A DNA stretch of 64,000 nt from Mayamaea pseudoterrestris (taxonomy: Eukaryota), in NCBI GenBank assembly GCA_027923505.1, contig BROI01000019.1, positions 248,001-312,000 on the forward strand, in the 5' to 3' direction. The stretch's first letter is position 1, and each line of letters begins with the position of its first letter. A model generated the notes under the pieces. It was given only the letters and a program-made list of their open reading frames with translations. It had not been told where the DNA came from and made no database searches. The position numbers were made by a program, and so were the translations under genes. Shown here one piece after another: positions 25,368-63,353 of the stretch.

Positions 25368-28346
25368 CTAGATTATGTTGAACACCTTCTTTAGCTTGAC
25401 TACAAGTCGCCAGTCGTCATTCTCCAACTGATCCTTAAAGTGAGCCTTGAGCGCATCGATTGATGCTCGCGTCAAGGTTGAGTACAGCATGTTCGTCGAA
25501 TCAAACTGTCGACCGTAGGTAATGTTCGGATTGCCCTCATTGACAATCTTGACAGCCACACTCGCGCCCTTGCGTGCCGTATTTTGTTCGCGGCCATTCA
25601 TTTCAATCGAGGTCACATTGCCAACATGCAAGCCGCCAATGGCTGGGACGCAGAGCGGCGTACCAACCTTCAAAATGCCTTCCACCACTTCAACGCCGAC
25701 AATAATGGGATCTTTCTGGTTGAAAACGTGCTGCGGTAGAATTTTGATAATGGATGGAAAGACGGCGACGGCAGACGCTTCCTCGCGGCGTCGCTGGTTC
25801 AACTCATCCATGAAACGAGTGAACTGGTCGAAGAGATGGTAGATAATGTCGGCAGTCATAATGCGGACTCCCATTTCCTGCGCATACTCGCGAGCGTCTC
25901 GTTCGATATCAACATCAAACGCTAGAATTGTGGCGTATTCAGAGTGACCCTTTTCGTTCATGATGGAAATTTTTGTAACATCGCGCTTGTGGATCTTGCC
26001 AATTCCAATCGCACTCACTGGTATGGGCGGTTTAGTATCCTCTCGCAAGAACTGCAGCAAGGCTTCCAAAGCACCGAGTGTCGACGCTTGCACTAAGACA
26101 CCAACCTTGTCGGTTGACAGCTTGTCTTCGAGGTTCGTCAAGTCTGACATGACTTCGGCCTTAATGTCTTCTTCCTCGTCATCTTTTCCAATAACCATGA
26201 CAGGTGTTCCCGCCATGACCTTCTCTAAATGATTGCCGATAACTTTGACTCCAAGAGCACCCTTGACTTCCTTGTGGTGAATGTACTCGGATTTGATGCG
26301 CATTTCTCGACTCGGAGGAGGCGTTAACAATCCACGAATCTCCGTAACAATCGGTCCATCAAGCGTGCAAAACACAGCCTTGTCGCCTTCGCGAAGTGAG
26401 CCATTCACAACCAGCACGTCGACTGTCATGCCAAGACCATCAATTTGTTTAACTTCCAAAACTGTCGCTTGCAGGTTCGCGTGCCACATGAGATGCTCTC
26501 GAATCGTCAACTGTGACATCTTTGCCAAAAGCATTAAAACATCCTGTACACCTTCGCCAGTCACAGCAGACGTTGGCACGAGAGGAACAAAGTCACTGTT
26601 CGTCCAGTCTTCCTTTCCCATTTCCCAATATATATTTGAGTTGACGCCTTGCTCTTGCAGCTGTACCTTGGCGTCAGTTGCCCGACCACGAAACTCCTGA
26701 ATGGTGTTATCGTCCTGTGCCTTCAAGGCCTCGCGAATTGGAGTGTCCTTGCATGTCTTCCATCCGTAACAACGATCCACCTTGTTCAAAGCAATAACGA
26801 ATGGAACGCCGCGTTTCCGAAGCATGGTAAGACTTTCAATCGTCTGCTGCTCGAGACCGTGCATGAGATCAACGACAAGAATCGCCACATCGCACAGCGA
26901 TGAGCCACGCGAGCGCAAGTTGGAGAAAGACTCGTGACCAGGCGTATCAATAACGAGCATACCAGGTATTTCAATTTCAAACTTTTCCGTCTCGTTGAGC
27001 TTCTTTGTTTGTGCCTCCAGCGTCTTCTTCTCGAAAAAGGTTGCACCAATTTGCTGCGTAATACCACCGGCTTCTCCTTCTTGGACATTCGTCTTTCGAA
27101 TCTTATCAAGTAATTTTGTCTTTCCTGTATCGACATGTCCCATAATGACAACGATTGGACACCGCAGATCGTTAGGTGATCGAGCGGCCAGATTCTTCTT
27201 TTCCAGCTCGAGGCGTCTTCGCTTGCCATCATCCCGCTTTTGTGCCGCCATGGCCTTTTGCTTGTCTTCCTCCATTTGTTCAGCTTCCATTTTTGCGCGC
27301 TCCTCGGCTTCCTTCTTTTCTCGCTCGGCTCGCTGGATTCCAAGTATTCTCAGTCGCTCCTCTTCCTTGCGCTTTTCCAGTTCGATGAGGTCCACGTCTT
27401 CGCCATTAGTTTGAATAGCAACATTTTGCAAGCGCGCTTCCAGATGGGCAAACTTGTCATCGTCATCATCGTCGCTGTCTGCGTCCCATTCGTCGCCAGA
27501 CGATTCAGCTTCCTTTGTCTCGTTCTCTGCAACGTGCTCGTCGGCAAGTGGAACTTCTACAGATGCAGCCTCCGTCAATGTTGTCGATTCTTTTGTCGCC
27601 TCTTCTTTCTCGTCATCTTGCTCCTCAGAAGCCGCAGTATCAACTGATAGCTTGCCTCCTCGTTTCCGATTGTCGTATATAGGCTTCTTCGGTTTGGCGG
27701 CTTCCTCTTGCTCCGTCAAGGGCAACATTCCAGCCGCTCGCATCGCTTCCAGTCGAGCCTCGGCCTGCTTCTGCTTTGCTTTTTGGGCCTTTGTCATGTA
27801 TGTTCCTTCCTTCTTTTGTCGCTCGACCTTCTCCTTTTGCTTTTGCCTCTTTTTCTCTCGTTCCTCCTCCTTGATACGCTGTTCTTCCGCCTCCTTGCGT
27901 TCCTCTTCCTCAATGCGCAATCGTTCCTCCTCCTCCAATTTTCGAATGCGCTCCTCCTCTTCGCGTTGCTTTCGAATACGCTCCTGAACAAGCTTTCCGC
28001 GAGCCGACACCTTTTCCTCCTCCTTTTTTGGTTCAGCTGCTGCTGCTCCAGTCTTTTTCTTTTTCTTCTTCTTTTTCTTGTCGGCGGCCGACTCTCCTCC
28101 CAAGCCTTGCGACGCCAAAAAGGCTGCTGCAGCGTCCTGGACATCAACGGCACCGTCATCATCTCCATCGTCGTCGGCTTCGTCTTCCTGGTCTCCATTT
28201 TTTACTTCTTCTGCTGCTTTAGATTCTGGTGCGACTGCCGTAGCGTTGAGCTTTGCTTCCGCCTCTAGAAACGCCAAGTCGTCATCGTCTTCTGCAGTCT
28301 TTTTGCCGCCAGCAGCAGCGCCTCCTTTCTTCTTGGCTTTTCCCAT
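25368..28346 (-). CDS. eIF5B: Eukaryotic translation initiation factor 5B
   Basis: GHVDTGKT, GGITQQIGA, DTPGHESF, NKVD, ASTLGALEAL and ADIIYHLFD motifs; K/E-rich N-terminus starting MGKAKKK at 28346. Confidence 0.97.
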   Translation of the reverse strand: MGKAKKKGGAAAGGKKTAEDDDDLAFLEAEAKLNATAVAPESKAAEEVKNGDQEDEADDDGDDDGAVDVQDAAAAFLASQGLGGESAADKKKKKKKKKTGAAAAEPKKEEEKVSARGKLVQERIRKQREEEERIRKLEEEERLRIEEEERKEAEEQRIKEEEREKKRQKQKEKVERQKKEGTYMTKAQKAKQKQAEARLEAMRAAGMLPLTEQEEAAKPKKPIYDNRKRGGKLSVDTAASEEQDDEKEEATKESTTLTEAASVEVPLADEHVAENETKEAESSGDEWDADSDDDDDDKFAHLEARLQNVAIQTNGEDVDLIELEKRKEEERLRILGIQRAEREKKEAEERAKMEAEQMEEDKQKAMAAQKRDDGKRRRLELEKKNLAARSPNDLRCPIVVIMGHVDTGKTKLLDKIRKTNVQEGEAGGITQQIGATFFEKKTLEAQTKKLNETEKFEIEIPGMLVIDTPGHESFSNLRSRGSSLCDVAILVVDLMHGLEQQTIESLTMLRKRGVPFVIALNKVDRCYGWKTCKDTPIREALKAQDDNTIQEFRGRATDAKVQLQEQGVNSNIYWEMGKEDWTNSDFVPLVPTSAVTGEGVQDVLMLLAKMSQLTIREHLMWHANLQATVLEVKQIDGLGMTVDVLVVNGSLREGDKAVFCTLDGPIVTEIRGLLTPPPSREMRIKSEYIHHKEVKGALGVKVIGNHLEKVMAGTPVMVIGKDDEEEDIKAEVMSDLTNLEDKLSTDKVGVLVQASTLGALEALLQFLREDTKPPIPVSAIGIGKIHKRDVTKISIMNEKGHSEYATILAFDVDIERDAREYAQEMGVRIMTADIIYHLFDQFTRFMDELNQRRREEASAVAVFPSIIKILPQHVFNQKDPIIVGVEVVEGILKVGTPLCVPAIGGLHVGNVTSIEMNGREQNTARKGASVAVKIVNEGNPNITYGRQFDSTNMLYSTLTRASIDALKAHFKDQLENDDWRLVVKLKKVFNII

Positions 28347-28661
28347 CTTGCATTTATGTAGAGAGTGAGTGAATGCGTGTAAGCAATTAGATGCGGAAAG
28401 GCGGATGATGTTTGAACGCGAGGATGGATGAGCGCTGTGATGGACGGTGGTGGGAAATCGTGCGTTCGTCGCTGAAGCACAAGCACCCATTTTTGCTTTG
28501 TGAATTAGCTACGTATGATGCCGTACTATCGCATTGCCAGAAACAGTATGCGCCACTTGCCTTACGGTTCTGTAATGATGGACGTGCACGCAGTACTGTA
28601 AACGAGCATTCTAGTATTACAAGTGTCAGTCGGTTAAGAGCCAAGTCCAGTGAAACTCACT

Positions 28662-32937: not shown

Positions 32938-33705
32938 AGATTGCGCGGGCGAAAATATACCGGTACACGAGCGACAAGTGGTACGCCAAAATCGATGACT
33001 TGTGAAGTTGAAGCAGAGCTCTGAGCCGAGCTTATATTAGTTATTGTCATAGAAACTAGCTGACATAGGTAGTGTTTCTTCGCTTCTTAGCGTTATTTGC
33101 TGACTTTCGTTGAAGTCGCAAGGACGGATGAACCTCCTTGAGCCAAAAGACGGGTCGTTCCGCGGGATGTTTGTCTCGCGTGTCATCTTGCTTCAAGAGT
33201 TTTTAATTTGGGTGTACTATAGCAGTGCTATTCTTTGATAAGGAGAGCGAAGTAAAATGCATTAAAAAGAATTTCGTCAAATCATATGACCCTCTCAATT
33301 AGTCCACTTGCTGCTCGCATACAATAGTAAACAGCATATGTGTAATGAAGGCTGTATCATAATATGAGCATCCGATGACAATTTAGGCAACGCTACCTGA
33401 GCGCAAGCTCCAGGTAAGCCTCTGCTACCGTTGCCGGAAGATATGGTACAACAATAATGTTGTCGCCAGATGTTTGACAGTTGTTAGGATAGTGACACAA
33501 TGGTCTGGTGGGCAGCACATAGCTACCCTGCTCATTAGCGTTCTTCGTTAAGGAGCAGGTTAATCCTCTGACAGCCAACGATTTCTTGCGCATTTCATTC
33601 GACTTGGATTTGTTCTTCCAGGAGACGCCTTGCTATTGTGATCGAAACGACGGCTGTAGAGGAACTATAGATTAGATAAGCGTGAAATAACGAATCCACA
33701 TAACC

Positions 33706-36700
33706 ATGGTTGTCATTGAGGACATGAAGATGGAGGAAATGGCAACGCCGACGGAAGCTTCTAGCCGCGAAACGCTCGTCGTTTACCTCATGGCAATTCG
33801 ATCCGCCGCCACTCGATTGGCGACCCGTCCTACCAGCAACGACGGAGTGCAAGACATGGATGTGGAGGAAGCTCAAATGAAAACCGATACTACATTGGAG
33901 GATCCAGCACTAATGATGGAGCAGATTGCCCTCTTGCTCTTGGACGCGAGTCACTTGTCAATATTGTCGGCGCCAATTACCAATCTCCCAGACTTGCCCA
34001 TCATTTGGGGCTCGCACGGCGAAGCAGCCTTTCGCGACTACCTAAATGAAGACTTGCTCTACAAGTACCGGCGCATTGATTACTTGCGCATGCTGCTGCG
34101 AAGCACTGCGCCAATTGCCATTGACTTGGCGGCAAGTATTTGTCACTATGTGCAAAAGCAGTTGGAGCAAGCGAGCGAAGAAAACACGCAGCAATCGAAA
34201 CAAAAGGCAAATACGACACTGGCAGCCTTTGTCTTGTTTTCGCAGTGGCTTCCCTTTGCCTCGCACTTGGTGCCGATTGTTTCTGACTTGTTTGCGCTGC
34301 AAGCCTTTCAGTCGCCATTGATGCTCGTCGAGACCTTGATCCAAACGTCGTCGGCGGCGGCAAGTATGAACGATGACGATTACAATCAACAAGAGCAACT
34401 CGACTATGATTACAAGCATTTGGTCATTGAAGCGGCCTACCATATATGCGAACTGTACAGTGAGCGACGCGAGCACTTCGTCATGAAGGAGTTTTGGCAG
34501 TGGGAATCAGTCTTTGCTTGGTTTGCGAGTGACGGTCCGGCAAGCGACGACGCAGTCATGAGTGACAATGAATTGCAACTAGACAATGAACAAGAGGCTG
34601 GTGACGCTATCAGTAACGGGGGTGAGGATGATATGACAAATGTTGACCCGATTCGGTGGTATGCCGTTCGCGTAGCTGCCCGCGTTTTGAAACTTTCGGC
34701 CAGCGTTTGTTGCAAATATTTCAAGCTGCATAAAGCACACCAAGAGTTTGTTCCAGGCATGATGATACATCCCTTTGATTTAGATCATGAATATTGCCAT
34801 ACACAGTCATTGGCGCTGCGGGGGTTGGCGCAGTTTTGGCGACTTGGTGAACTGACGCTGCCGACGCTGGCAGCGGTAAGAAGATATGTTCCGCTGCATC
34901 ATTGCTTGGTGGATTTGGGCAAGGGCTTGGTATTTTACAAGCATGGAGCAATACGAAACAACTCGTCGCAACATTTATCGGCAGAATCTGGCAAACAACA
35001 ATCAGCATCGCAGAAACGACGATTGGTAATGACGCCAACGACGGCCGACAATTTGTCGAACATTGGCGTCGCCATGTGCCTCAAGGAGCCCCCTCCTATT
35101 TTGGTTTCAGGTCCGCGAGGATCGGGAAAGTCGAGTTTGGTGCGCGAATTGGCCCGGCTATTTTGCAATGACGATGAAACCTACAATCACGATGCTCACT
35201 TGCTTGAGATTCATGTCGACGATGAGACAGACACCAAGACGCTAATCGGATCATACACTACTTCGGACATCCCTGGTGAATTTGAGTGGCGGCCAGGAGC
35301 ATTGACAATTGCTGTGCGGACCGGTCAATGGGTGTTGATGGAGGATATTGACGGCGTACCGCAAGAAATTCAAGCGTCGTTAGTGCAGCTGCTCGAGTCT
35401 CGACTGTTGCCGCTTGGAAATGGAAAGGTAGAGCGATGTCACCCGAATTTTCGATTGTTTGGAACAATAACGCCGTTTTCGGGCAATGCAGATGCTAGTA
35501 GGAGGACGAAGCGCGATCGAACAGTTGGTGGAAAGCGCTTGCTTAATCCAGATTTATGGCGAGTTGTGGACATTCGGCCACTTCCTGCTAGCGAGCTGAA
35601 AAACATATGCGTTGGCTTATATCCAAGCATTCCAGAATCGATTGTTGATTCAGTGATGAAGGTGTTCCAAGCTATAGATCCAAGCGGTCGCGCTCAGATT
35701 TATGAGATAGACGACACGGCCAGTAGGATACGGATTGACCGACCACCTTCCGTCCGAGACTTGTTCAAAGTGTTTTCAAGGATACGGCGTGCCGTTGCTT
35801 TTGAACGATGGACGCAATATGTAACTGAGGCCCAAAGAACACTGTGTTTTGCGGAAGCAGTGGACGTCTTTATTGCTGCATCGCCGGATCCAGAAATGCG
35901 GCGAAATTTTGTCCGGCACATTGCAGCGCCGTCCTTTGCGATCACTGCTGATTTGGGTTTTCGTTACGTGGAGACGAGATGCCCAACTCTTGATGTGCAC
36001 GACACATGTACTGCAATTGGGCGTGTCAACCTAGAAGTGCCGCGAAATGCTTTGCGAAGGGCGCATGCGTCCACGTTTGCGACAACTGAGTACACGTTGC
36101 GGCTTATGGAAGCCATTGGTGTGTGCGTGCAGGAAACTGAACCTGTTCTACTTGTCGGAGAAACTGGCTGCGGGTAAGAACTTTCATATTAGGTTTATGT
36201 GAAGATATTTATCACGTTGCTCATGCTTTCATGGATTATCAGGAAGACAACAGTGCTGCAACAATTGGCTGCCTTGTGCGGGCGTGAGTTGACGGTGCAA
36301 AACTTTTCATTACAGACCGATTCCAACGATATACTTGGTGGTTATCGGCCTTTAGAGTTAAGGCTGATAGCTGCCAAACTATACAATGATTTCGTCGACC
36401 TATTTGTTTCCATATTCAGCCGAAAACAAAATGCTGAGTTCCTTCAGTTTGCTCACGAGGCTTTGAAAAAACAAAATTGGAAGAATTTATCACATTGTTA
36501 TCAAAGAGCCGCAGGACTTGGGATGGGCAAAGTTAGACGTGGTAATGTCGACGCGGCAAATCATGCTCATTTGAACGCCTGGATGGACTTTCATGCGAGA
36601 GTAGAAAAGTTCGAGCAACAGCGTCTTGCAGCTGATGCTGGTCTGGCTTTCGTTTTTACCGAAGGGGCATTGGTTGATGCTGTGCGGACGGGAAAGTGGA

Positions 36701-39700
36701 TTCTACTGGACGAGATAAATCTTGCTTCGAGTGAAAATCTGATGAGAATTTGTGGTCTACTCGACGATCCTTTTGGAAGCTTGACTTTGACGGAGAAGGG
36801 CGACACTGTTCCGCTCGAGCGACACCCTGATTTCAGATTGTTTGCTGCCATGAATCCTGCGACGGACGCTGGGAAGAGGGACCTTAATGCGACAATCCGT
36901 TCACGCTTTACAGAAATATATGTCACCGAGATAATGGATCCAGTTGAGTTACGCACTATATCCGTACGATACATTGCTGACATTTTGCCGAAAACGGAGG
37001 CTCAATTACAGCATAGTGATATGGTTATTGCTATGGTTGATGTTTATTTAAGCTTAAGAAGTCTAGCCGACACGAGTCTGGTTGATGGTAGCGGTCAAAG
37101 ACCACGATATACTTTGCGGACGCTTACGCGAGCCTTGACTGCTGCTCGCGCCCTCGTAAAACATCAAAAGCTCCCTCTAAGGCGAGCAATATATGAAGGC
37201 TTTGAGTTGGCTTTTGAGGGGCCTCTCGATGCAGCATCAACTAAGTCGATGCGAAAAGTTCTTCGAACTGGGTTAAAAGTTGATTTCAACGCCGACCAGG
37301 TTGATCAACCCAGTCGGCGACCTGGAAAAGATGATGAACACGAGTTAATTGCGCCGTTTTGGTTAAAAACGGGCCCACTGGGTCGTGCAGACTGGTCGAC
37401 TATGTCAGCAGTGAGACATCGGATGTTTGTCTTGACGCCGTCGACAAGGGCAAACCTTCGGAGACTTTCGCGTGTCGTGGCTGCTGGGCCTTGGCCTGTC
37501 TTGCTGGAAGGTCCAACAAGTGCAGGGTACGTGATTCTTGCTTGTTCTCTATATAATGGTTTCATTGTGTCTCACACCATCGCTTCTTGCATTTGCATAG
37601 CAAGACGACTCTTATTGAGTACCTAGGCGCTCGTCTTGGTCATCCTGTCACACGTATTAATAATCACGAGCACACTGATGTCCAAGAATATCTGGGTAGT
37701 TTCATTGCGTCGTCTACAGGTTCATTATTGTTTCGAGATGGCTTGCTAGTTCGTGCTTTGCGGCTTGGCGAGTGGGTAATTTTAGATGAGCTCAACTTGG
37801 CGCCCACAGAAGTCTTAGAGGCTTTAAATCGACTACTTGACGACAATAGAGAATTATACATTCCTGAGACGAACGAGGTAATTGTTCCTCATGAAGGTTT
37901 TCGACTTTTTGCGACGCAGAACCCTAGTGGAGCATATGGTGGTCGTAAGCAATTGTCGCGTGCTTTCCGAAACCGGTTTGTTGAGCTTCACATGGGTGAC
38001 ATCGCGTCTTCGGAGATGGCTCAGATTCTTGTCGAAAAGTGCTCATGCGCGCCCTCGCAGGCTGATCTGCTAGTTGCTGTTATGGATCGACTGCGCTTAC
38101 GGCGCAGGAAAAGTGGTGTATTTCTGGGTAAAGATGGCTTTATCACACCCCGAGACTTGTTGCGGTGGGCGAATAGGAAGGCCGCTTCGAAGCATGAGCT
38201 GGCGAGGGAAGGTTATATGCTTCTTGCGGAGCGATTACGTACACTAGACGAAAAGCAATGCGTGAAGGAAGAGATTGAGCGGGTAATGAAAGTGCAAATA
38301 GAGATCGACAAGGTGTACAGCGACAAAACCTCCAAGCCTTATCGGCTCCTTCAAACAACTGTTGAGTCGTCTAATGACGATTTCATCGGCAACATTGCCA
38401 TAACAAAGAGTTTGAAGCGCCTTGTAGCGCTCGTAGCTCGATGTATCGAGCATAATGAGCCCGTGTTGCTTGTTGGAGGTGAGTTTGTGGGAAAGCATTT
38501 ATATACTGTCGTGTAGTTTTGAAGTGACGCAGTTTGCGTGCTCACACTCCGTTTCATCATCTATCAAGATACTGGGTGCGGCAAGACGACAGTCATACAG
38601 TTATTAAGCATCGCTTTTGCCAAAAAACTTCATACTATCTCTTGCCACGCAACTACAGAGACCGCCGACCTTCTTGGTGGTCTTCGTCCTGTTCGGGGTC
38701 GAGCACTTTTGTTTAATCAGATGATTCACAAAGGCAAAAAACTTCTTTCTGTGTTCTCTCCGGATGACGACATAATGACCGAAATTTCTATTCCTTTAAT
38801 TTTAAGACAGGTTGGACAAGTAATTGAAACAAGTGACCAAGCGACAGACTCACAAAGCACTTTAGTACGCGATATTGCTCAGTTCGTGCAGCAGATTACA
38901 GTGTTCCAATCAAGCCGTGGCGGACATCGAGAAAAGAAGCGAATCAAGCTCGATTCTGGGAATGCTTCACCTTCAAGCGAAACGACAGAGATCCGTGGTC
39001 GTGACATGGATACCACGATGGCCATAGTAGATGAAATCCACGAACTTATTAGCCGATACAATTCTCTGTTTGAGTGGTCAGATGGACCTCTTGTCGAAGC
39101 GATGAAACAAGGAGATTTTCTCCTTTTAGATGAGATCTCGCTTGCAGAAGATGCTGTCTTGGAGCGCTTAAATTCCGTTTTGGAACCATCACAATCGCTT
39201 GTCTTAGCCGAAAAAGGAGCTGACGTTTCAGAGAATCCGACAATTACTGCTGTTGTTGGATTTCATGTCTTCGCCACAATGAATCCTGGTGGAGACTTCG
39301 GTAAACGAGAGCTGAGTCCGGCACTTCGCAATCGATTTACAGAAATTTGGGTTCCTTCGATCGATAACTGGTCCGACATTGATATTGTGTTGAAGCAAGC
39401 GCTAAAGTCGGTAGACTCGGAATTTCCACTTGTCCATCCTCACATGCTAGACTATGTCCGGCACTTCAACGACTATCTTTGTGGTCCTCTGCATTTTGCT
39501 TTGGCATTGTCGCTGCGGGACATGCTATCCTGGGCTGGTTTCATGGTTACGACATTGTCTGGAAATGAGAGTCAATTTGGCTGCTGGGATGCGTATCAAC
39601 ATGGCGCATCGATGATGCATTTGGATGGACTCGGCTTGGGCACTGGCATGAGTACTGATGGAGCGGCCGAATTAAAAGGGAAGGCTGAGTCTTATTTACG

Positions 39701-42700
39701 TGATCAGATACAGGCATACGTAAACGGCTTACCAGACGACAAAAGTGGCGCAGTCGGCATAAGTCGTGGTGGCTTTGGGTTGGCGCCGTTTTATGTGAAG
39801 CTTGGTCCGTGCTTACGAGGGACACCCAGCTTTTTGTTTGAAACGCCGACAACCTCTGCGAACTGCCTCAGAATTTTAAGAGCGCTACAGCTGCCAAAAC
39901 CTATTTTGCTTGAAGGAAGCCCCGGCGTTGGCAAGACCACAATCGTGCATGCCCTTGCTGCTGCATCTGGCCATAGGCTCGTGAGGATCAACCTCTCAGA
40001 GCAAACGGATTTGGCCGACTTAATTGGGCAAGATCTTCCTTCGCCCGCTGCAGAAGAAGAAACTAGCATGCTTTCTTTCCAGTGGTTCGACGGTGTTTTA
40101 CTGGCCGCGATCAAAGCCGGTGACTGGGTTCTGCTCGATGAAATTAATCTTGCCCAGCAGGCCGTTTTGGAAGGTTTGAACAGTTGTCTTGATCACAGAG
40201 CCAGCATATTCATACCTGAACTTGGCCGCGAAATTGCATGCCCTACGACCTTCCGAGTGTTTGCAGCGCAAAACCCTGTCGCTCAAGGTGGTGGTCGAAA
40301 GGGATTGCCGAAGTCGTTTTTAAATCGGTTTACGAAAGTTTACATGGACCAATTGACAGATGACGACATGAGACAAATTGCAATATCAAAATTTCCTTGC
40401 ATTGGCACTGCTGTTCTCAATAAGATGATAAAATTTGGGAATCATGTACATGGCGCTGTCGAAGCACGAGTCATCGGCCAGCTTGGTTCGCCCTGGGAAG
40501 TCAACCTCAGAGACCTTTTTCGATGGGGAGAGCTGCTCTCTGATGTTTCATGTGCCAATGAGTCGGATTGTACGCGCTTCGCCTGGGAGCTATACATCCA
40601 TCGTTTCCGGACAAGGCAGGATCGAGATTTCATTTCTTCGCGGTATAAATCTGTCTTTGGTAATGACATTATACGGGAAGTTCCGATGATAGAAATAACT
40701 GCATCACATGTATCAGTCGGATCATCGAAGTTAAATCGAAACGCTGACCAGGCGATTCGCTTAGATTCCGATGCCCCTGACGCACAAATTCCATACATCA
40801 TTAGAGACTCCCTTGAGGCTGCAGCTCGTTGCGTGCTTATGGACTGGCCATGCCTTCTAATCTCAAGCCATGAGCGTCGTGCATCAAATATAGTCAATTC
40901 ACTTGCTGCTTTTACCGGATGCACGGTTGTTGAAGTGGCTTTGAGCTCATCGTCGGATATATCGGAGCTAATTGGCGGTTTTGAGCAAGTTGTTGAGACC
41001 ACCCAGGTAAGGGACATGCTTATTACAGCACGTCGTTTAGCTTATGAATACATGCTGACTGTGAGTTCTGCTCAAGTTGGCTGGCTTCTGTCGAAAGTGA
41101 GTCTCGATGCAAGCGACGCCACTATTGATGCGGCAATTGAACTGGTTGCCATTCTTTTTCGCAATAAATCTATAGCCAAGTCGAATGGTGTCGAGCTAAA
41201 AAGAATCGAGCATTCGTTGAAGGCATTCCGACAACGAACTCTCCAACGGTGTACGTCAAAGGGTGTCTTTTCGTGGACTGATGGACCACTCACGCGTGCT
41301 ATGATTGATGGGCATTGGATTCATTTAAGAGGCTCTAATCTCTGTCCGGCTACGGTCCTTGATCGCCTTAACTCAATATGCGAACCCGATGGTAGTCTGC
41401 TTGTTGCCGAATGTGGAAGCGAACGAATTATCAAACGGCATGCCAGATTTCGAGTGTTCCTCTCGTACAATCCGGATGCGGGCGAAATTTCAAAAGCCAT
41501 GCGAAATCGCTGCGTTGAGCTGTTTCTGGACATCGAGCCAAATCCTTGCCTTGTTGATGTTTATGACCGCATTTGGCATTCAGGCCTCCGCGATAACGCT
41601 GCCGTGTCCGCACTTGTGGATAATTATAAATCGTTTGAACCTTCACAGGAGCCCGCTGACTACATTAATGATGTGGGTCTCGTGGCTGCATTCTTTTGCG
41701 AACGAGGATGTGGACCAGACGCACATGTCCAATTATCTTCGCTCCCTCAAAGACCTATAGGTAGTGGTGGATGCAATTCATTGGCCTCGGCAACTTCATT
41801 GCTTCGGTTTCCATCAGTTGCGAGGGTACTTGAGGATGCCCGGCTTATTCGGTATCTCGCTACGTGGGCTGGCGAACTTCCACAGTTGCATCCATTAGAT
41901 ACGAAACGATTTGACGCTCTCGGTTACAAAACTGCACGATGTCCGCTTGGCGAATTGTATGACCGCATTTCTCCTTTGTTGCCTGCAGATTTAGACGTCT
42001 TGCTGCTTAGGGATATTTTGCTGCTCCTGATGGTGGGCCGCAGCTCGCTAAATGATGTTCAGACAAAGGCACTGATGCTGGGTAGCATTCAGTCCGCTTT
42101 TGGCGGTGTAGCCTCTTTTCTCACTAGTCAAGCCGTCCGGATTTCGGCAACTGCGACGGATGGAGTTGTTGGGAGTAAAGTTGATAATCAATATATCCTG
42201 ACCAGAACAATATTGAGTTCACTGGAGCAGCAGCTTGAAACGTTGCGATTTCACCGTCTGCCACAGCAGGCACTGGAAGCAAGGGATACCGAGTGCATAA
42301 TTCATTTGCCGTTGCAGAAAATTAACCAAATGAGCGTACTGAGTGCTTCTATTTTGATTTCTCGTGGGGCACTTGATAAAAGTGTTTTGGGATGCTCGCT
42401 CACGGCTTTGTACTATCCGTTTCTCAAGGCCTTTGACGAGGCAATGAGTTTATTAAAAATTGGTGCACTGGGAGAGAAGCAATTGCAAAAGATTCAAAAT
42501 TTATTCTCCCAGAGAGATCAGCTTTGGCATGTTGGAAAGGATACTCTCATCGACCAGTCCAGGCCGGGTATGTTTCTGTTCGACGAGGCGGAGATAGTGC
42601 TACAATGGACCGCTTGCCGGAGATATCTCCAAAGTTTTGGATTGTTAGTAAATTTGGAATTTCGTGACGATGAGAAAAAATGGAATCGGCTGGAAACGAT

Positions 42701-45700
42701 TGTTGATGCGATTGACGGAGCTATCTACGGGAGCCTCGGAAAGACAACTTTCTGTATTCTTGACACTGCCATCAAACCGCTTGTCCCTCAGACGACAGAG
42801 TCATGGTCAATCATTTTGTCCCTGAAACGTCTCGCTAACTCATATTCTCTAGACTATTGGCTTCTTGGTGAGAAGTCGTTGCGATTGGACGACCTTTTGG
42901 CACAACGACATCCATACCTTTTTGTTTCGTCCGGCTTGAAACGTGACTTAATGACGGCTTTGAGCACTATATATCTTGCCGGTACCAGTCATATATCGAC
43001 ATCAAGTAATTTTTCATTTGGCAGAATTGGCACAAAAGCCATGGTCGACCTGGTTCAGCAATGGGATGACGCGGCGTCATCATTTGGCTGCATGCTCAAT
43101 AGCATCCTTGTTGATCCGAATATCGAGACACCGGAAAATGCAATAGCTATTGCTGACTTCCCGAAACATGGGCAGTGCAACAATTTACACCTTGTTCACG
43201 TTGAGTCACATTTGCTTCAACGGTTTGCAGATCTCCAGTTAACGCCCTTGGCCGAGTTTTACAGTGAACTTGTCGAGCGAAATTACGTTCGGGAAATAAG
43301 TCGCCTGCTTTTGGCTGACGACAACATTGACTGGACGCAGCTGAAGAATCTAATTGGGTTCGCGACTGGGCATACTCGATGGAACGTTGAATTGCACCAA
43401 ATGCTTGTTTGGGCATCTGAAATTGGTGACAAACAGTTGATGTCGCGTCTTTTGTTGTCCTTGTCGTGTGCCTCTGTGCGGCGTAGTTGGTCAGGTGCTT
43501 CATGGCTTTTCGATCGCATAACATGGGACCTTCGGTTACCCAGCCCTGTAGCGACTAGATGTGAAGAGTCTGCGTCAGCATCGCAGAGACCCTTGACGTC
43601 TTCCATCGACCGGGCATCGATCCCTATCGCCACAGTGTACAGGCTACTTCGTAACGAGTTCCGCTGTTTGACGTTGTCGAATAAGGGTGGAAACTTTGGT
43701 ACAATTGAAAACTACGAAACGAGAGGGAAACAGGCAAACACCTTGATGCAGATGTTGTGCTCGTTAGATATCGTCGAATCCCGTGATGGCCCATGGGAGA
43801 TAAATATGCAGGTAGTTGATACTTTTTCTGCAATACGCGATAACGTGCCTCAGGAAGAGCTGGACATGTTAATCCAGGCACTATCTTGTCCAGAAGGCCT
43901 GTTAGCAATTCAGGTAGACTGCATTCCAGGCATGATGCAAATTTTTGGGAGTGTTATGCCTGCACAACAACTCAACAGTGTATTGATTCCATTGCTGAAA
44001 TGTTTGAAAGGACTTTGGGCCACCGCAAATGCTTCGAACAATACCTCGCTCGATTACGGGAAAGCTAGAGTCTACCTCGGCGTTTTTCGATTCCACTTGC
44101 TTATCCCGGATTCCCCATTGGATCCTTGTCGAAAGCCCCAGGCTGCGGTTTCGACAATTGACCGACAACTCCAACAACTGCGAACTAACCTTTCAGCTAT
44201 CCGTCTGGATGGGATTTTCACAAAATGCAATCATTCACCCGATTATGGAATTTCGCGACAGTTACTGGATGAAGGTGATAGACTGATGTCTCAACGAAAT
44301 GTGGAAGAACAGAAGATGTTCCAGCGTCCTGCCATTGCGCCACCTTTCCAAAAGTTATTTCAAGAAATCAGAGACTTTGCTGAGCAAGTCCTGTGCGCCG
44401 AAAAAGTCCTTCTGTTGCTGGACGACAGTGTGAAGTTGCTAGAACCACCCTCTGACAGACTCCAACATTTTGAGATAACTGCTGTTGCTTTCTGCCGTCG
44501 TTTGATTGACCAATATTCTATTTACGAGGACGTGGTTATCCCATTGCTTGATGCTATTGGAAGCGTATTGATAGGCTTCAAGGTCGTAGCTGACGTGCAT
44601 GCGCGTAGAAGCGCGTCGTTAGGAAGCCTTTTGGCGTCCTTGTCAAGTTTTCCAATGATCGACAGTAAGGAAGATTACCACGATGTCAACACGACTTATC
44701 GACACTCAGTTGGAGTTGCAAGGCTCGCTCGATGCGGAATTCTGAGCAAAGCTGGAGATATTCAAGCGCTGACGAGCTGGTATGGAATCGTTGATGGCAT
44801 TGTAGAGTCATGTCATACATTCGAAATAGGGTGTAGCAAAAGCGACAGTAATCCTGTTGCGACGGAAGATGACTACAAAGAACATTTTCCTGATTTTCGC
44901 GAGGATTATCAGCCAGTGCAAGCTATCGATGACGACGACCAGCACGCGGAGATAGTATATGAGAGGACGACTCCTCCACCAGCTTTGCTTCGAGACGAAC
45001 ATATCTGTATCATGAGCAACATTCACGAAAGCGTATTTATGTGCGATTATATAAGTGATGCAATGCGTATTGAGGCATTTCGTCTCTCATTTGAGGCGTC
45101 ATGCGAAATATTTGAGACGCCCGGGACAAATATATCGTCGGAGAGTTTTGTCCCAGCATCTGGCTATGCCATGGCGCTCTCCCTATTCAATCTGCAAGAA
45201 AAATACGCAGTTGACGCACTTCAGCAGCAGTCGAGCTCGCCGGACTTTTATCGCGCTGCCAATCCCATCGAATCTTCCCGTGCCGCTCCCGTACTAACTA
45301 TGCTTATGGGGCGATTAACAGCACTCCATACTGCATTTCCTGACAACGAGGTTCTCCTTGCCGTCATAAGCGTCACCGAACAGATAAGAAAGTTTGATTT
45401 GTACTCTGTTCCTCTCGCCAAGGTGATGGTGGGTCTTGAGTTGATTTTAAAACATGCTCAAGACTGGGAACAGCATGCCAGCCGAAGAGTAAAAATCGGG
45501 GAGCCTCTTACGTCGCTGCGACACCTTGTCTCATCGTGGCGCAAGCTTCAGCTGCAATGTTGGTCGCTGCTGCTCGATTCAAGACAAGAGGCTTTCAACC
45601 GTCGCGCTCGGCTCCATTGGGCTAGCATACACATGATGCTACGCCCGTCGGCCCTGCCGCCTGCCCCGGCAACGTCGCTCACATTCTTAACGCCTCTCTG

Positions 45701-48700
45701 GGTCCTCCGATATCACGGGCGCGCTGCGAAACAGTCCCGACCAGAGGTTGCAGCTATAATTAAGACACTTGATACTTTTATACTCACCTCATCATTGGGA
45801 GAGTTTTTCCAACGTCTGCGCATAATCGAATGCTTTGCACGGCAGCTGCAGACAGAAGAGCGCCATCAGCTGCTTGACGACATTCGAGTCGCTCTGGCCA
45901 GATCTGTCCGGTCACTCTTTGTGTATTACAACCAATTTGTACCCTGTATCAAAAATAAGCTTGATAAGCTTCACCAACCTATCGAAGTCAAACTCGCGGA
46001 TGAAGTAAAGCTGGCCAAATGGGACGAGCAAAGTTATTATGCAGCGGTAGATGCAGCAGAGCGAAATTACAAGAGCTTGATGCGTTTGATAAAAGAGTAT
46101 GATGAGGTTCTTCATTTACCTGTCACCCAAATGCTTGAACAAGAACTTTGTCGCGGAGTTGGCGACGACCAAGAAGATGCATCTGCCGTTACAAAAATCC
46201 CAGCTAGATCAATTCTTTTCTCGGCGTTGCAGGTGGAGGGCGCTCTTAAAAACAACCGCAAGTTGTTTGTTCCAGAAATTACTAAACTCAGCGAAACCAT
46301 TCCTGAAGCCTGTGATGGCGGAATGCAACTCGTAGCGGATGAAAAATGCTTTGCGGCGCAGATTAAACAATATATCAAGAGAATGTACACCTTCCGGCGT
46401 GAAGCAATATCAAATAGCATGTATTCATCAACACATGAAGCGTCTGACTTAAATGCCACTATTTTTGAAAGAATCGACTCTCTTCGATCGGATAAAGTTA
46501 CTCGTCCGATGAAGGAACGAGCTCTTATTGACTTGCTGAAAGAATTGAAGCATCAAGGGTACGCTGAGTCGAAATATAGTACACCTATTCAAGTCAGCAG
46601 TCTAAGCGAGCTATTTCAGCTTCCAACTATGACATTTTACAATGACTTGGACGGAATGGCGGACCTCTCTGTTCTTCAATCGGCGGAAATGTACTATCAA
46701 CGAGTTCTCGCGGAGATGGATCGTTTTCGCGGTGAAGTTTGCTTAATCGGAAGTAGACATCTTACTCAGCGTCAAACTAATTTGATGCTCGCGCTCTCTG
46801 ATAGCGGCCTTTATATGCTTGTTCGTCTGAGGTGTACTTTGTCCATAAACATGACAGCGTGCGGACAAATGAGAAAACTGACTGAAAATTTGGCTTGTTG
46901 CAAAACGATTATTCCTGTGGGGCAAAAGGTTCTTACAAGTAAAGTGGGGCGTTTTAATAGACAGTCGAATGAATTGCTTGAAAACCTACGGCAACATAAG
47001 CTGCTTCTCGCACGTACAAAGTATCTGTTCGCGGAAGATGATAAAGCAGCGCTGGCTGACGAGCTAGCCCGGCAGCTTGACGCTGCCATCTTGAAACAGA
47101 AGGATCATCTTTGTGCAGCGAGTATTATAACAACTGAGGACCACTTACATCAGCTTACGCAAGAGCTTGACTCGCTGATTGCCTTCCGCGATTTTCTCCA
47201 GAAACATCTTGAGAAATGCAAAGGACTATTGCCGATTGATGCGATACGCGACACTCTCGCGCTTGTATACAAATCTATCAATGCAGCGGAATCCTGCACG
47301 AGTGTGACAGCAAATGAATCGCCACCGTCAAGCCAGTCTGATCCTCACGATTTAGTCAACTGCGTGTCGCTGGCGGTTGAAGCTGCCCTTCTGTCGGTTC
47401 AGCCCTTGGTTGCCAGACGCGATGCCAACGACAGCAGCACTTCATCGATTTGGCATCACCACCAGTCGTTTGTAGAAACATCTGCAAAGTCGAATATCAT
47501 GAGTATGATCGGCAAGGTCAACACTGTTATTTGCACACTTCAAGGCGTAATTGACAATCAAGAACAAAATGTATCCATAATACCAGTCTGTGTGAAGCTG
47601 TGTGCCGATCTGAGTGTCTTGCTTGGACTTACAGTTGACCTGTTTGACGAGTTTTTGCGTGAAACGATTTCCTTTTATAGAGTAACGGCCAAGCTTCAGT
47701 ACATTATTCTGAGAGTGTTCCGAGTCCTTGTCGCTAAAGGTTTCTGCTCAGATGACGTCGACGAAAAAGAGCCGGAAGGTGAAGGTACTGACGGGTTAAA
47801 CTTTGAAGAAAAAGATGGCACTGGTATGGGTGACGGTGATGGCAAGAAAGACGTGACTGACCAGATAGAGGACGAAGAACAGCTACTGGGACTGAAGGGC
47901 GATGAAGAAGAAGGTCAACAACAGGACGAATCTCGTGAATTAGACAAGGAGGAAGCGGAAAAGGGTATGGAGATGACGAACGAATTCGATGGCGAAATAT
48001 TCGACGTTCCCGAGACGGAGAACGGAGACGATCCTAATAACGACGACGAGGAAGGCGAAGAACTTGACCGAGAAATGGGTGATGGCGAAGGGCAGAATGA
48101 CCGAGTCGTCGATGAAAGAATGTGGAACGAAAGTGACGACGAAGAAGAGGGAACTGAGGAACAGAAGTTTGAAAAGGGCAGTACTGTCCAAGGCGGCGAA
48201 AAGAGCGATGAAATGGCAACCAAAGACGACGAAGAAAAGGATGCGGCCACCGACAACAAATCTGGCGAAGCTCCTGACAGTGAGCGCGCGGACATCGAGG
48301 ACAATGGAAAGAGTGGTGACGATGCGATCAATGAGGACCTAGATGAGCAGTATGAAGAAAGCCATGGTGTGCCTGTTAGGCAAGAAGAAGATGATAAGGA
48401 CGAAGGCCTAGAGATAGCCGATGACATGGAGCTTGACGAGGCGGACGACCAAAAATCGGAAACTGGCGACAACATCGACGACGCCGACAATTCTGAAAAT
48501 GATAACGAATCCATCCACGGAGAGCCGGATGTCAATATGCTGCCTGATCTCACCGCAGATGAGGAAAAAAATGACGATGAAAAGCCTCAAGATGAGACCG
48601 AATCATCATGCAACGCAGCAACTGCTGCAGCTCAGGAGGAGCATGGCTTACCCGAGGAAGATAAAGCCGATGAAGCAGACCCTGAACGTGAACCGGAGCT

Positions 48701-50417
48701 TCGTGTCGAAAATGACAAGAGCGAGCCTCAGCATGGATTGGGAGTCCAATCGCAAGAAGGAAAAGATGTTATTGATCACTGCCTGGACGACGACAAGGAC
48801 GGCCAAGGAGAGAACGATGGCGAGCAGACGAATGATAATGAAGGAGCTGGTGACTCTGAGACCAATCCTTCTGGAAAGAGCGACGGTGGCGGTTCCGGCA
48901 GCCAAGGTCAGAATGTTTCAAATGGTGTCGATGCTGAGGCAAAGCGTTCGAAAGTAGAGAACGAGGTTCCCAATCCATTAAAACATCCTGGCGATGCGAG
49001 TAAATATTGGCACCGCAAACTCAACCTTGTTGAACCACAGAACCCAGAAAGCGAAAAACAAGAGACTGACGACTTGGAAGTCGGCGAAAAGCAGGCGGAA
49101 CACAATGGCGACTTTGAATTCGGCAATGACAACGACAGTTTGCAAGCGCTAGCAGAGGTAAATGATGATGACGTTGCTTCTGGAGAACGCAATGAGCAAC
49201 ATAATTTTTCCAGCCCCCCAGAATTGACAGATCACAAAGCTGAGGAAGCCAAACAAGATCAATCGCAAAATCGCCAATCATCCCGACCAAGTACACGTCC
49301 TTCTAATGCGAGGCAGGAACATACGGAAGCAATGGATGAAGACGAGGAATTAGAGTCGACGATCGAACATGCTGATGAACTCACGGACAACGAAGACGAG
49401 GCAAACGAGATGGAGGATTCACCATATGATCCCATCGATGCAGTCGGCAATGTGGTTGTGTCAGACACATCTCAACTACAACAAGAAGAGTTAGATGCAA
49501 CAGTTCAGAAACTCAACATTAAAGGCGAGGAATCACAGCTCGCCGGCCTCACTGCCGCGGAAGAGTCGGTTGCAAGACGTCACTGGAACGAGCTACAATT
49601 GGAAACGTATGCACTTAGCCGCCGGCTTTGCGAAAAGTTGCGGTTAGTCATGGAGCCACTGGTAGCGTCCAAACTCCGAGGCGACTATCGAACCGGCAAG
49701 CGCATCAACATGAAACGTGTCATTGGCTACATTGCGAGTGGATATCGCAAGGACAAGATTTGGCTACGCCGCACCAAGCCAGCCAAGCGCAACTACCGAG
49801 TCTTGATTGCAGTGGACGATTCGGAAAGCATGCGCAAAACTGGCGCCGGAGAAATGGCGTTGAAGGCATTAGCGACGTTGACTACCGGCATGAGTCAGTT
49901 GGAGATTGGCGAAATCGGAGTGGCATCTTTCGGAAACGAAATGAATCTGATTCATTCGTTTGATCAACCGTTTACTTCGGAGAGTGGGCCAAACATTGTC
50001 GGCAACTTTCGGTTTGAGCAGCAACGAACTCGAACCGCGCTGTGCGTGGAGAGTGCCATGATGGCGCTAGAGTCGCACGGAAGCCAGGTGGCTCCAATGC
50101 AGCTCGTTTTTATGATTAGCGACGGTCGTATTGAACGTGATAGTCGGACGGCGCTCCGGCGTTTGAACCGCGAGCTGACAGAGCGCAACATTTTAATGGT
50201 CATGATGATTGTGGAAGGCGAAAACAAGAAGGATAGCATATTGAATATGAAGGAAGTGACCTTTGACAAGGGCAAGCCTATTGTCAAGTCATTCATGGAC
50301 GACTACCCGTTTCCTTATTACATCGTTTTGGAAGACATGCAGAGTCTTCCCGAGGTGCTTGGCGATGCCTTGCGACAATGGTTTGAAATGTTGGCCGGAC
50401 TACAGGGAAACAACTAA
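33706..50417 (+). CDS. MDN1: Midasin (Rea1/MDN1) AAA+ ATPase; 4 exons, 33706-36173, 36243-37526, 37601-38478 and 38569-50417
   Basis: Six AAA modules (GPRGSGKS, GETGCGKT, GPTSAGKT, GDTGCGKT, GSPGVGKT, degenerate sixth), long linker, D/E-rich region and MIDAS domain (GDYRTGKRINMK, DDSESM). Three GT-AG introns of 69, 74 and 90 nt restore the frame. Confidence 0.97.
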
Positions 50418-50526
50418 TTAAATACAATGAACATAACATACATAACATACTTTTACAAACAGTATATACACCATGTATACATTCACGCCATGTGCAGTCG
50501 TACACCACAGCACGACTCGACTCGAT

Positions 50527-51189
50527 TCACATGATTTCAGTGTCCAAAAACGTGAGCAGTCGCCGGGCCTTTTCCTGCGCCTTGGTTTCCCACTCCCACT
50601 GCAGCTGGTACTTCATGCCGGCAATCGTTTCCGGATCACGAACGTCGTCGGCCGTCACTTGCCTCTTGGGTCGACTGGACGTGGCCAAGAGTTCCGGTGG
50701 CGTCGGAACAAAGAGCTTGGGTGTAGGCTTGATTGCCGTTTGTTCCTTTTGCTGTTCCAATTTTGCTTGAATGATAGCCTTATGAACTAGCTTTTGCTCA
50801 TACTGGAGTTGGGCGGCTTGGCGGGTTGTGAGTGAAGCGTGATGCTGCTGCTGTGTTGAATCGGCCTTCTTGGCCTCGCCTTGGTGTTCCAGCTGCAGCG
50901 CATGGGCAGCTGCCGTGGCTTGCTGTAGCAGCATCAAGGCGCGAGCAGTCGTTGGATCGTTTTCAACAATATTTTGTTCGTAGTCACTGTTGCTCATGTT
51001 GATGGCGCGCGCTGCCGCCAGTCGACTCTTGCCGTTTAATTCAATGTTGGGCAAGTCCATGGCTGATCGAGGCGACTCACTTGGCGACGGCGACGTCTCA
51101 CTTGCCTCGGGAGAGTGAGGAGCAGCCCAATTCGGATGAGAGTCAAAGGGATTCATAGTGACTGGCGAGCTTGGGCAGGTGCTTGTCAT
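50527..51189 (-). CDS. Hypothetical Ser/Pro- and Gln-rich protein (start uncertain)
   Basis: Long ORF with SP-rich N-terminus and helical C-terminus, convergent with MDN1. Candidate ATGs at 51189 and 51156. Confidence 0.5.
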   Translation of the reverse strand: MTSTCPSSPVTMNPFDSHPNWAAPHSPEASETSPSPSESPRSAMDLPNIELNGKSRLAAARAINMSNSDYEQNIVENDPTTARALMLLQQATAAAHALQLEHQGEAKKADSTQQQHHASLTTRQAAQLQYEQKLVHKAIIQAKLEQQKEQTAIKPTPKLFVPTPPELLATSSRPKRQVTADDVRDPETIAGMKYQLQWEWETKAQEKARRLLTFLDTEIM

Positions 51190-54696: not shown

Positions 54697-55010
54697 TTTG
54701 GATGCATTTGTGTTGGGAAACAGTGGGCCAACTGCTGAAGTTGAAACACACTAGCGACTTTCGCACGCTGTTGCCCCGAACCTATGATTCGAATCTTTTC
54801 GCCCGGCAAGTTTAAAACGCAATGCTGTAGATAGACTTTTGATTTGCTTTGCATCAAGATGGCTTGCTTGCGTCGTAGATAATGTCATACCGTTACACCT
54901 TTTCATTTGCGCTGAAGATTGCTGATTCGCGAAAGTTGACAATGGCCGCACGCAAAACCTCGCCGATTCAATGAATCTCTCGTCCATTCTACCAGTCAAG
55001 CGAACCAAAC

Positions 55011-57419: not shown

Positions 57420-57883
57420 CTATAAGTTGAATGGTAACACCCGCTTACCAAGATAATTTGCTTGTCTGCTAAGCCTAGGTATTGAAACATTGTGTTTATA
57501 CAACGCAGTAAAAACGATTTCGAACGCGAGGACTGACCGGTGTGTCCATGGGTAAACAAGGTGCAGCACCCACCCGATGACCATACGGCCATGCTTAAAG
57601 TCTTCCGGTATGAAAGCAAACATGGGCAAACATATATTTACGAATATACGCTGTAGTCAGAGTCAATGTTGGACAAAAACTGGCAACTATGATTGTGAAT
57701 CTGGACGAGAAGCGTCGAGCCTAGAATAGTAGCTAAAGTTGATCATGAAAATGACTCATTTAAATTCGGAAGGCATAAATAAGCACGTGCTGCGACACGA
57801 ACAAACGCAAATCCTGTGATCACCATGGCAGAACGTCCAAACTTTCTTGTAATTACATCGCTGCTGCATCTTCACGTCCTACG

Positions 57884-63300: not shown

Positions 63301-63353
63301 GCTGGCAAGGTAATCAGCAGTGCTGCTATACGCGACAGTCGATTAAATCTCAT
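60342..63353 (-). CDS. PEPC: Phosphoenolpyruvate carboxylase with signal peptide (PEPC1-like, probably periplastid)
   Basis: VLTAHPT, WIGGDRDGNP, QEVMVGYSDSAKDAG, FHGKGGTVSRGG, LRAIPW and C-terminal MRNSG. ATG at 63353 gives MRFNRLSRIAALLITLPATVQCA. Confidence 0.96.
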   Translation of the reverse strand: MRFNRLSRIAALLITLPATVQCASSGKNAAPARGTNPSTGSVTQPSTKEPNANVETMDLEIAAPLSQSGSIDMDRDAPLLNDIQLLSDILSDIVNSESQKVHDLYEQFRSLGLERADPSKNQESTMERMVQLAADLDAQDAVGVMRTFSVMLNLVNSAEVQHRTRQMRAHESVRDSQGGPLPVVEDSMRGTMDALLESGLATKEQIFRQLLQQKVEIVLTAHPTQVQRKSMLRKYSHISDQLATLERPDLSAFEKTHIKMDLQRTVASILGADEIRRLKPTPQQEATGGNAILESVLWDAVPAYLRKLDAQVQLTLGMRLPIDFVPIKFASWIGGDRDGNPNVTPLVTREVVLQQHLRAARLFMRDMYDLLGELNISARFSPALLELAGSIKQSLHIREKYRRVVSHLIKRLVKTARECEMELAKLSSGGHLQHTVVDDLADGWSDVDPITKDEDLMQPLRIMYDSLVSTGYGLVADGKLVDIIRRVASFGISLLPLDIREESGRHTEALDAITRYLGIGSYNEWTEEARLNWLTSELVNRRPLFRIRDLEEMGFEQTVVNTLQTFETAASLSSDSLGAYVISQAQTASDVLAVMLLQKQFGMTADKGNLMRVVPLFETLNDLTNAASVLKTLFSVPVYVGVIRGKQEVMVGYSDSAKDAGRLAACWAQYKSQEDMVNVAAQAGIELTFFHGKGGTVSRGGNPSVYRAIMSAHPPNTINGRFRVTEQGEMITQNFGAQSIAERTLDTYTSAVCREHFTKHVEPKKKWRQQMEKISDNSCEEYRQLVREEPRFVPYFRQATPELELNRLNIGSRPAKRNPMGGIESLRAIPWTFAWTQTRTHLSAWLGVGKGLHAENDEELETLRDMYQKWPWFRETVDLIAMILSKTDYSIAKNYDTQLVDKSEDLKKLGEEVRDKLVETRQAVLDITESKHVAGVHVALTRASNTIRFPFLDPINVCQAEFLKRLRATEKESDDASKKSVEHLQDALMISINGIAQGMRNSG

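Follow-up and report, generated by a model that had tools for sequence, protein, structure and literature searches.

The window analysed here is a stretch of 64,000 nucleotides (nt) of Mayamaea pseudoterrestris DNA (assembly GCA_027923505.1, contig BROI01000019.1, positions 248,001 to 312,000 of the forward strand), which carries at positions 33706-50417 of the + strand a gene for midasin (MDN1), recognized by its Pfam domains and by matches to Rea1 structures. Three short introns interrupt this gene, and each of them splits the Walker A motif (P-loop) of a different ATPase module, namely AAA2, AAA3 and AAA4. In midasins of the diatom type, introns appear to have occupied the Walker A codons of the modules AAA2-AAA5 repeatedly, and those of AAA1 never in the loci seen; at least 13 intron positions were counted in the four eight-codon loops of AAA2-AAA5 (32 codons). 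The reading that we favor, and to which we give an even chance of being correct, is a recurrent and probably neutral gain or copying of introns at P-loop codons. The bias would then arise because the sequence of the P-loop itself, and its paralogy from one module to the next, direct where introns are gained or copied, and the loop introns would have no regulatory role.

Gene identity and splicing

Four collinear open reading frames (ORFs) of the + strand (33691-36173, 36243-37526, 37601-38478 and 38569-50417) join into a single open frame of 5497 codons with one terminal stop. The AAA_5 domain was found in each of the four exon translations (in three stretches in exon 4), together with AAA_lid_7 and AAA_lid_5. 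Exon 2 aligns from end to end with the solved Rea1/Mdn1 chains 6i27_A, 5jcs_s and 6or5_A (E 9e-140 to 1e-137); its residues 1-426 correspond to Rea1 residues 612-1039 of 6i27_A (E 9e-140), a span that begins with the Lys of the AAA2 Walker A motif and extends as far as the AAA3 loop. The last 405 amino acids of the protein match the C-terminus of 6or5_A (residues 4328-4715 of 4717, E 8e-68) as well as the isolated MIDAS-domain entries 6qt8 and 6qta. The AAA_5 and lid domains, the alignment of exon 2 and the C-terminal MIDAS match therefore identify the gene as midasin.

Canonical Walker A loops (G....GK[ST]) are five in number, at codons 474, 823, 1251, 1548 and 1998. The Walker A motif of AAA6 (at approximately 40500-41000) is degenerate, with WPCLLISSHERRAS in the window against WPCLLVGPAVVGKS in Phaeodactylum, which reads GPAVVGKS at the degenerate site. 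Degeneracy of this loop is known from other midasins as well.

The stretch is covered by four public runs of one study (X1-X4), the contigs of which were placed on positions 33000-51000. Contigs of run X3 leave out exactly 69, 74 and 90 nt, in each case with GT..AG ends; those of run X4 leave out the 74 and the 90 nt, and a loose end at 36242 bears the end of exon 1. Contigs of runs X1 and X2 continue through all three introns. One X4 contig begins at 33684, near the start of exon 1. The term RNA-like is applied to X3 and X4 from the behavior of their contigs alone, and contigs drop rare variants. Besides the three introns, no joint was reported in the run contigs over these 18 kb. The three window introns are ordinary short GT-AG spliceosomal introns, the removal of which restores intact Walker A loops: they have GT..AG termini, and their exact excision restores the reading frame, as is characteristic of this class. 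If they are retained, translation ends at the ORF ends 36177 (TAA 36175-36177), 37626 and 38516 (in-frame stop 38514-38516), respectively. Introns 1 and 2 occupy the same codon and phase of successive modules.

A preliminary description of the window, made from its sequence, had predicted these splits of the AAA2, AAA3 and AAA4 loops with their codons and phases, and had regarded the rest of the gene, including the 11.8-kb exon, as free of introns. The joined ORFs and the exact skips in X3 bear out the former, and the latter agrees with the single ORF and the lack of further joints in the run contigs.

Midasin also varies in length among the public runs, always in frame (some X1/X2 contigs lack 9 nt at 36541; elsewhere 6 nt are missing at 41620 and 6 nt are added behind 49337), and differs by substitutions of roughly 1%; the runs therefore hold other strains or alleles.

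Non-random placement

The Walker A loops comprise 120 of the 16494 coding nt of the window midasin, in agreement with the preliminary estimate of under 1%, and the probability that three of three introns fall into them by chance is (120/16494)^3 = 3.9e-7, or 9.9e-6 for the AAA ring taken by itself. The preliminary description had rightly judged the placement to be non-random. Chance as the cause of the placement in this single gene, for which the small number of introns (three) might be pleaded, has in our judgement next to no probability in view of these values (about 4e-7 gene-wide and 1e-5 within the ring), and the comparative data reject it, since the relatives repeat the same loop bias.

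For the statistics of the ring, distinct reliable intron positions were counted over codons 440-2300 in the window and in the 27 most similar related loci described below. Eight of 21 such positions lie inside Walker A loops, which make up 2.06% of the junctions (binomial 5e-9; approximately 17-fold enrichment). Within highly conserved 5-codon windows the loops hold five of nine intron positions against 7.6% expected (p=2.5e-4), so that the excess is not merely a preference for conserved sequence.

Related midasin loci and protein fragments

A metagenome scan with alignment of the exon-2 homologues yielded at least 80 midasin loci (406 of 590 stretches confirmed). The spliced window protein was aligned to these loci, the hits were chained collinearly, since paralogous AAA modules cross-hit, and GT/GC..AG junctions were fitted. 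Each loop was re-inspected, since tblastn reads through in-frame introns that are free of stops. The detailed results refer to the 27 most similar of the 80 listed loci (L001-L025, L032 and L042), and intron positions are given as codon and phase.

Introns were found in none of the 21 loci covering the AAA1 loop and in none of the 22 covering the AAA3 loop. The AAA2 loop held introns in 11 of 26 covering loci, at 823-1 (one locus), 824-1 (four), 826-1 (five) and 828-2 (one). The AAA4 loop was occupied in 14 of 20, at 1548-1 (one), 1549-1 (ten, including L001 and L025, both called from read-through sequence) and 1554-0 (three), and no locus carries two intron positions there. Inside the AAA5 loop no intron was seen in 13 covering loci, four of which have one at 2006-2, one codon past the loop. 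Targeted gain had rightly been listed among the possible origins, as the loops of the relatives are occupied at many different positions. The introns in question are GT-AG introns of 57-167 nt. In L005 (1947-2150), resolved by hand from the sequence only, GT-AG introns of 95 nt and 90 nt flank a 19-nt micro-exon (L005:2042-2060) that codes for the core of the AAA2 loop; of these two introns, the second lies at 828-2, the position of window intron 1.

Other introns near ATPase motifs were found within the Trp codon that precedes the AAA2 Walker B strand (phase 2; eight loci), at sensor 1 (FATQ|NP) and just before the Walker B strands of AAA3 and AAA4. All introns seen lie in the 5' third of the gene, and its 3' two thirds form one ORF both in the window and in these relatives. 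The visible midasin of L002, L010 and L013 (4546-4831 codons) is a single ORF wholly free of introns; as minus-strand ORFs lie upstream, these loci are genomic. They represent complete intron loss or a never-gained state in close kin of intron-bearing lineages. Every covered loop of L015 is intact (AAA1 lies outside the coverage), and L006 and L011 look like transcripts. Among approximately 12 reliable intron positions in 53 more distant loci (33-53% identity), none was located in a loop.

Five of 23 candidates for split Walker A motifs were judged spurious (L005 at 849, L010, L017 at 8363, L018, and L023 at 5404), since their upstream context is not LLV or LLE and the loop is intact in the DNA.

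Many introns of the relatives are stop-free multiples of three (57, 60, 75, 78, 87, 90, 111 and 120 nt); they occur in L004, L005, L007, L008, L012, L014, L015, L016, L017 and L042. Such introns appear as insertions in tblastn and are a trap for homology-based annotation. Their excess may be a matter of ascertainment, because only introns of this kind could be hidden.

A set of 276 midasin protein fragments (clusters at 90% identity) was collected as well. The point at which homology ends in such a fragment marks an intron, because gene callers on eukaryotic contigs give ORFs that read into introns. Seventy-five of the 276 stop at residue 1548 and continue with Gly and unrelated residues, as read-through of a G|GT junction predicts. 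At least 16 end in GDTGCGK|V (1554-0), in a cluster that includes a Cyclostephanos protein, 28 end in HEHT|G, and 65 begin at residue 981, mostly preceded by unrelated residues and Arg. The fragments add the loop positions 828-1 (P0173), 1256-1 (P0013, P0200), a phase-0 site after Gly1256 (P0199), 1551-1 (P0169) and 1998-1 (P0167, P0260, P0272).

Within a lineage, equivalent positions tend to recur in paralogous loops: 828-2 and 1256-2 in the window, 823-1 and 1548-1 in L017, 824-1 and 1549-1 in L004, L021 and L032, and 826-1 and 1551-1 in P0169. There is no such match in the Thalassiosira-like group (826-1 with 1554-0) or in L005, and the cases are too few to be tested firmly.

Exon context

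Every phase-1 loop intron comes after a codon-initial G (codons 823, 824, 826, 828, 1256, 1548, 1549, 1551 and 1998). The exon contexts of the relatives are mostly NG|G or NG|A, with A seldom in the -2 position. Those of window introns 1, 2 and 3 are CGG|G, AGG|C and GAG|A, none of which is (A/C)AG|G; the earlier suggestion of gain at proto-splice sites in Gly codons is in this respect only weakly borne out.

The composition of the loops might by itself attract introns: P-loops are rich in G|G and G|A junctions, which are minimal protosplice sites, and their Gly-Lys codons mimic a 5' splice site, so that randomly gained introns would land or survive there more often. This would fit the codon-initial G just mentioned and a preference for protosplice sites at conserved Gly codons that has been described (PMC3488318). 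However, the density of G|R junctions in the loops is, by rough estimate, about three times the average, compared with the observed enrichment of approximately 17-fold; A is rare in the -2 position; and the AAA1 loop is similar in composition, yet was hit in none of 21 loci. We therefore consider composition on its own distinctly unlikely as the explanation.

Age and spread of the introns

In a tree of residues 870-1250 with 92 tips, the window groups with P0002, P0006 and P0011 (support 0.94), and each of these four ends, or is split, at GPTSAG as expected of a phase-2 intron. The position of intron 2 is limited to this small clade, which is nested among 68 demonstrably genomic tips with an intact AAA3 loop, the adjacent tip P0182 being one of them. 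P0002 also shares intron 1, as unrelated residues and Arg precede its KTT. Introns in the AAA3 loop occur in seven of the 92 tips, in four groups and three phases, and need four origins, compared with 11 losses plus phase shifts under a single origin. Introns 1 and 2 are younger and restricted to their lineage, having been added where Gly meets Lys (Gly|Lys) at the equivalent site of two paralogous loops, and the proposal of the preliminary description that the introns are relics of the module duplications is unlikely to apply to these two. The position of intron 3 (1549-1), in contrast, is spread across most diatom-like clades (10 of 20 covering loci); this phase-1 position after VLLVG is probably old within the group.

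The fragments P0173 and P0163 are 95.9% identical over 735 amino acids. In P0173 an intron-like pyrimidine tract and CAG stand right before GKTT, whereas the AAA2 loop of P0163 is intact; the pair therefore indicates a very recent gain or loss.

[quoted passage not shown] The wide distribution of 1549-1 speaks for such retention (half of the covering loci; 75 of 276 fragments ending exactly at 1548), as do the occupation of the AAA4 loop in 14 of 20 loci but never twice in one locus, the confinement of introns to the 5' third with a 3' part that is a single ORF in the relatives too, and the capacity of one loop to hold two introns (L005, with its 19-nt micro-exon). Many LECA introns are, moreover, common to pre-LECA paralogues (PMC9120149). 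On the other hand, introns 1 and 2 belong to small clades whose surrounding genomic relatives have intact loops, the four eight-codon loops hold at least 13 positions, which cannot all be ancestral, and sliding within an invariant motif must keep every residue. The 53 more distant loci lack loop introns, and presence or absence differs between proteins that are 96% identical. Retention from such an ancestor is thus regarded as unlikely.

Other P-loops and the question of function

The only other P-loop gene of the window encodes an eIF5B-like GTPase (Table 1). Among the 120 eIF5B fragments listed, 101 span an intact GHVDxGKT. In four (P0380, P0381, P0382 and P0384) unrelated residues stand directly before (T)GKT, and in P0379 directly before MGHVDTGKT; five fragments, including the Thalassiosira pseudonana model, start at the Met of MGHVDTGKT. 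These boundaries suggest that some diatom-like relatives have an interrupted P-loop in eIF5B, too, which would indicate a property of the P-loop coding DNA of this lineage rather than of midasin biology.

This bears on the alternative that an intron in the catalytic loop is kept by selection, either for regulation (retention followed by nonsense-mediated decay, which would throttle midasin and 60S production) or because it breaks up the similar DNA of the modules and so guards against ectopic recombination. The splicing checkpoint on 60S biogenesis that the preliminary description had suggested would be a form of the former. In accordance with such a role, the AAA4 loop stays occupied while the position shifts (14 of 20 loci, three positions in DNA), and retention of any window intron would truncate the protein before or inside the AAA ring. 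Truncation is not specific to the loops, however, because it is expected upon retention of any intron in the 5' third, where a premature stop would result in every case. The midasins of the genomic relatives L002, L010 and L013 lack introns altogether, the covered loops of L015 are intact, and an interrupted eIF5B P-loop in some relatives is not predicted by a role specific to midasin. Functional selection is accordingly held to be very unlikely.

Recurrent gain could also be given a wider form, namely that DNA coding for Walker A motifs (GxxxxGK[ST]) is a general and still active target of spliceosomal intron gain in diatoms, with insertion or copying into the P-loops of unrelated NTPases and between paralogous loops, and with P0173/P0163 as a recent event. 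We put this forward tentatively and think it somewhat improbable.

Several observations weigh against recurrent gain at P-loop codons. The 276 fragments represent clusters and not independent lineages, and the loop positions derived from them are read from protein sequence alone. A reliable intron was defined by a junction-fit score of at least 120, a filter that favors conserved flanks; with six lower-scoring calls included, 8 of 27 positions lie in loops. L017, L018 and L025 have unresolved gaps. No introner-like similarity was found among introns of the same locus (27 pairs, highest z 1.9, with one gene per genome). A duplication between intron and flanking exon exceeded z 4 in one of 104 tests and was unconvincing by eye, although old introns would have lost the signal, and target-site duplications or junction repeats were absent from 67 introns (mean of 6.52 matches, compared with 6.83 in mismatched pairs). 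Introns 1 and 2 lie in exon contexts that make poor protosplice sites. The 87.9 kb of flanking DNA hold four further Walker A motifs, none of them interrupted, which are too few for a test. That the AAA4 loop nearly constantly carries an intron, while the position shifts, may reflect one old intron that was relocated over short distances, or selection for having one there, and 1549-1, compared here at the DNA level in metagenome loci, may be of deep antiquity. A search of positions 33000-51000 against Rfam gave no matches.

Lineage and neighboring genes

The best named matches come from Phaeodactylum, Cylindrotheca, Thalassiosira and Bacillariaceae, which marks the organism as a diatom-type stramenopile and not an oomycete. 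Exon 2 is 59% identical to its homologue in Phaeodactylum, 58% in Cylindrotheca, 54% in Pseudo-nitzschia, 44% in Chrysoparadoxa and 39-40% in oomycetes, and the neighboring eIF5B is 79-84% identical to proteins of Bacillariaceae and Thalassiosira. The genome is intron-poor, as the other genes of the window (eIF5B, phosphoenolpyruvate (PEP) carboxylase and two purple acid phosphatases) are mostly single long ORFs. The features are summarized in Table 1.

Table 1. Exons, introns and intact P-loops of the midasin gene, and neighboring genes of the window
Feature	Position	Strand	Description
eIF5B-like GTPase	25371-28508	-	One ORF; intact GHVDTGKT
Exon 1	33706-36173	+	First ATG to donor 1; AAA1 and first six codons of the AAA2 loop; AAA_5, AAA_lid_7 (Pfam)
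AAA1 Walker A	35110-35133	+	GPRGSGKS; exon 1; uninterrupted
Intron 1	36174-36242	+	69 nt; GTAAGA..CAG; phase 2 in Gly828; AAA2 Walker A GETGCG|KT; loop spans 36157-36249
Exon 2	36243-37526	+	AAA2, beginning with its Walker A Lys, and the first six codons of the AAA3 loop; AAA_5, AAA_lid_5 (Pfam)
Intron 2	37527-37600	+	74 nt; GTACGT..TAG; phase 2 in Gly1256; AAA3 Walker A GPTSAG|KT; loop spans 37510-37607
Exon 3	37601-38478	+	AAA3, beginning with its Walker A Lys, and of the AAA4 loop the first Gly and one base; AAA_5, AAA_lid_7 (Pfam)
Intron 3	38479-38568	+	90 nt; GTGAGT..AAG; phase 1 in Asp1549; AAA4 Walker A G|DTGCGKT; loop spans 38475-38588
Exon 4	38569-50417	+	11.8 kb; rest of AAA4, AAA5, AAA6, linker and C-terminal MIDAS (Pfam); single ORF; stop codon included
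AAA5 Walker A	39915-39938	+	GSPGVGKT; exon 4; uninterrupted
Purple acid phosphatases (tandem paralogues)	54975-57416 and 57779-60247	+	Pur_ac_phosph_N, Metallophos, Metallophos_C; single ORFs of approximately 820 codons each
PEP carboxylase	60345-63434	-	PEPcase, E 1e-276; single ORF of 1030 codons

Significance

The origin and placement of new spliceosomal introns is a long-standing question, for which there are few clear examples of gain directed to particular sites. The midasin family is a compact natural experiment in this regard, with one 16-kb gene, four near-identical copies of a motif and at least 13 positions within 32 codons. Should the bias extend to other P-loop genes, as eIF5B hints, the motif could serve for testing mechanisms of gain in transformable diatoms; candidates are reverse splicing, break repair, copying between paralogues and mimicry of the 5' splice site by Gly-Lys codons. 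If the Walker A codons are indeed a hot spot, the pair P0173/P0163 makes the mechanism of gain directly testable. If simple retention is the explanation, a warning for annotation still holds, as diatom Walker A motifs are often split, sometimes by stop-free in-frame introns that are read through in homology searches.

Comparison with known systems

The literature covered contained no description of Walker A motifs as a hot spot of spliceosomal introns; it did not extend to the midasin analysis of Garbarino and Gibbons (2002), which may bear on human intron positions; the accessible parts of PMC5583752 and PMC5100056 do not address the pattern.

Like introner-like elements (PMC4457414; in Micromonas, PMC3879977), the midasin introns would represent a wave of gain that is specific to one lineage of aquatic protists, but, unlike those elements, they show neither similarity within a locus (27 pairs) nor target-site duplication. 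The protosplice model, with its consensus (A/C)AG|G (PMC3488318), agrees with the location of the loop introns between an exonic G and G or A, and the phase-1 splits of Gly codons fit it as well. It differs in that the A at -2 and the A or C at -3 are mostly missing (CGG|G, AGG|C, ACCG|G, GTTG|G), and such sites are not dense enough to explain an excess of this size.

It is accepted that introns can be gained in parallel (PMC9120149, PMC3488318). The new introns of Daphnia are an example of recurrent gain (PMC4202315), and parallel gains have been reported between separately acquired paralogues (PMC9120149). As in those cases (PMC4202315, PMC9120149), independent lineages have midasin introns at identical or adjacent positions and close relatives differ. 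In contrast to them, the loop introns show no short direct repeats or other insertion scars, and the sites are concentrated in a single catalytic motif that is repeated in paralogous modules. The same position and phase in paralogous AAA modules also resembles the intron positions that pre-LECA paralogues have in common (Vosseberg et al. 2022, PMC9120149). The equivalences in midasin are, however, lineage-specific and differ between lineages, and they are therefore much younger than the duplication of the modules.

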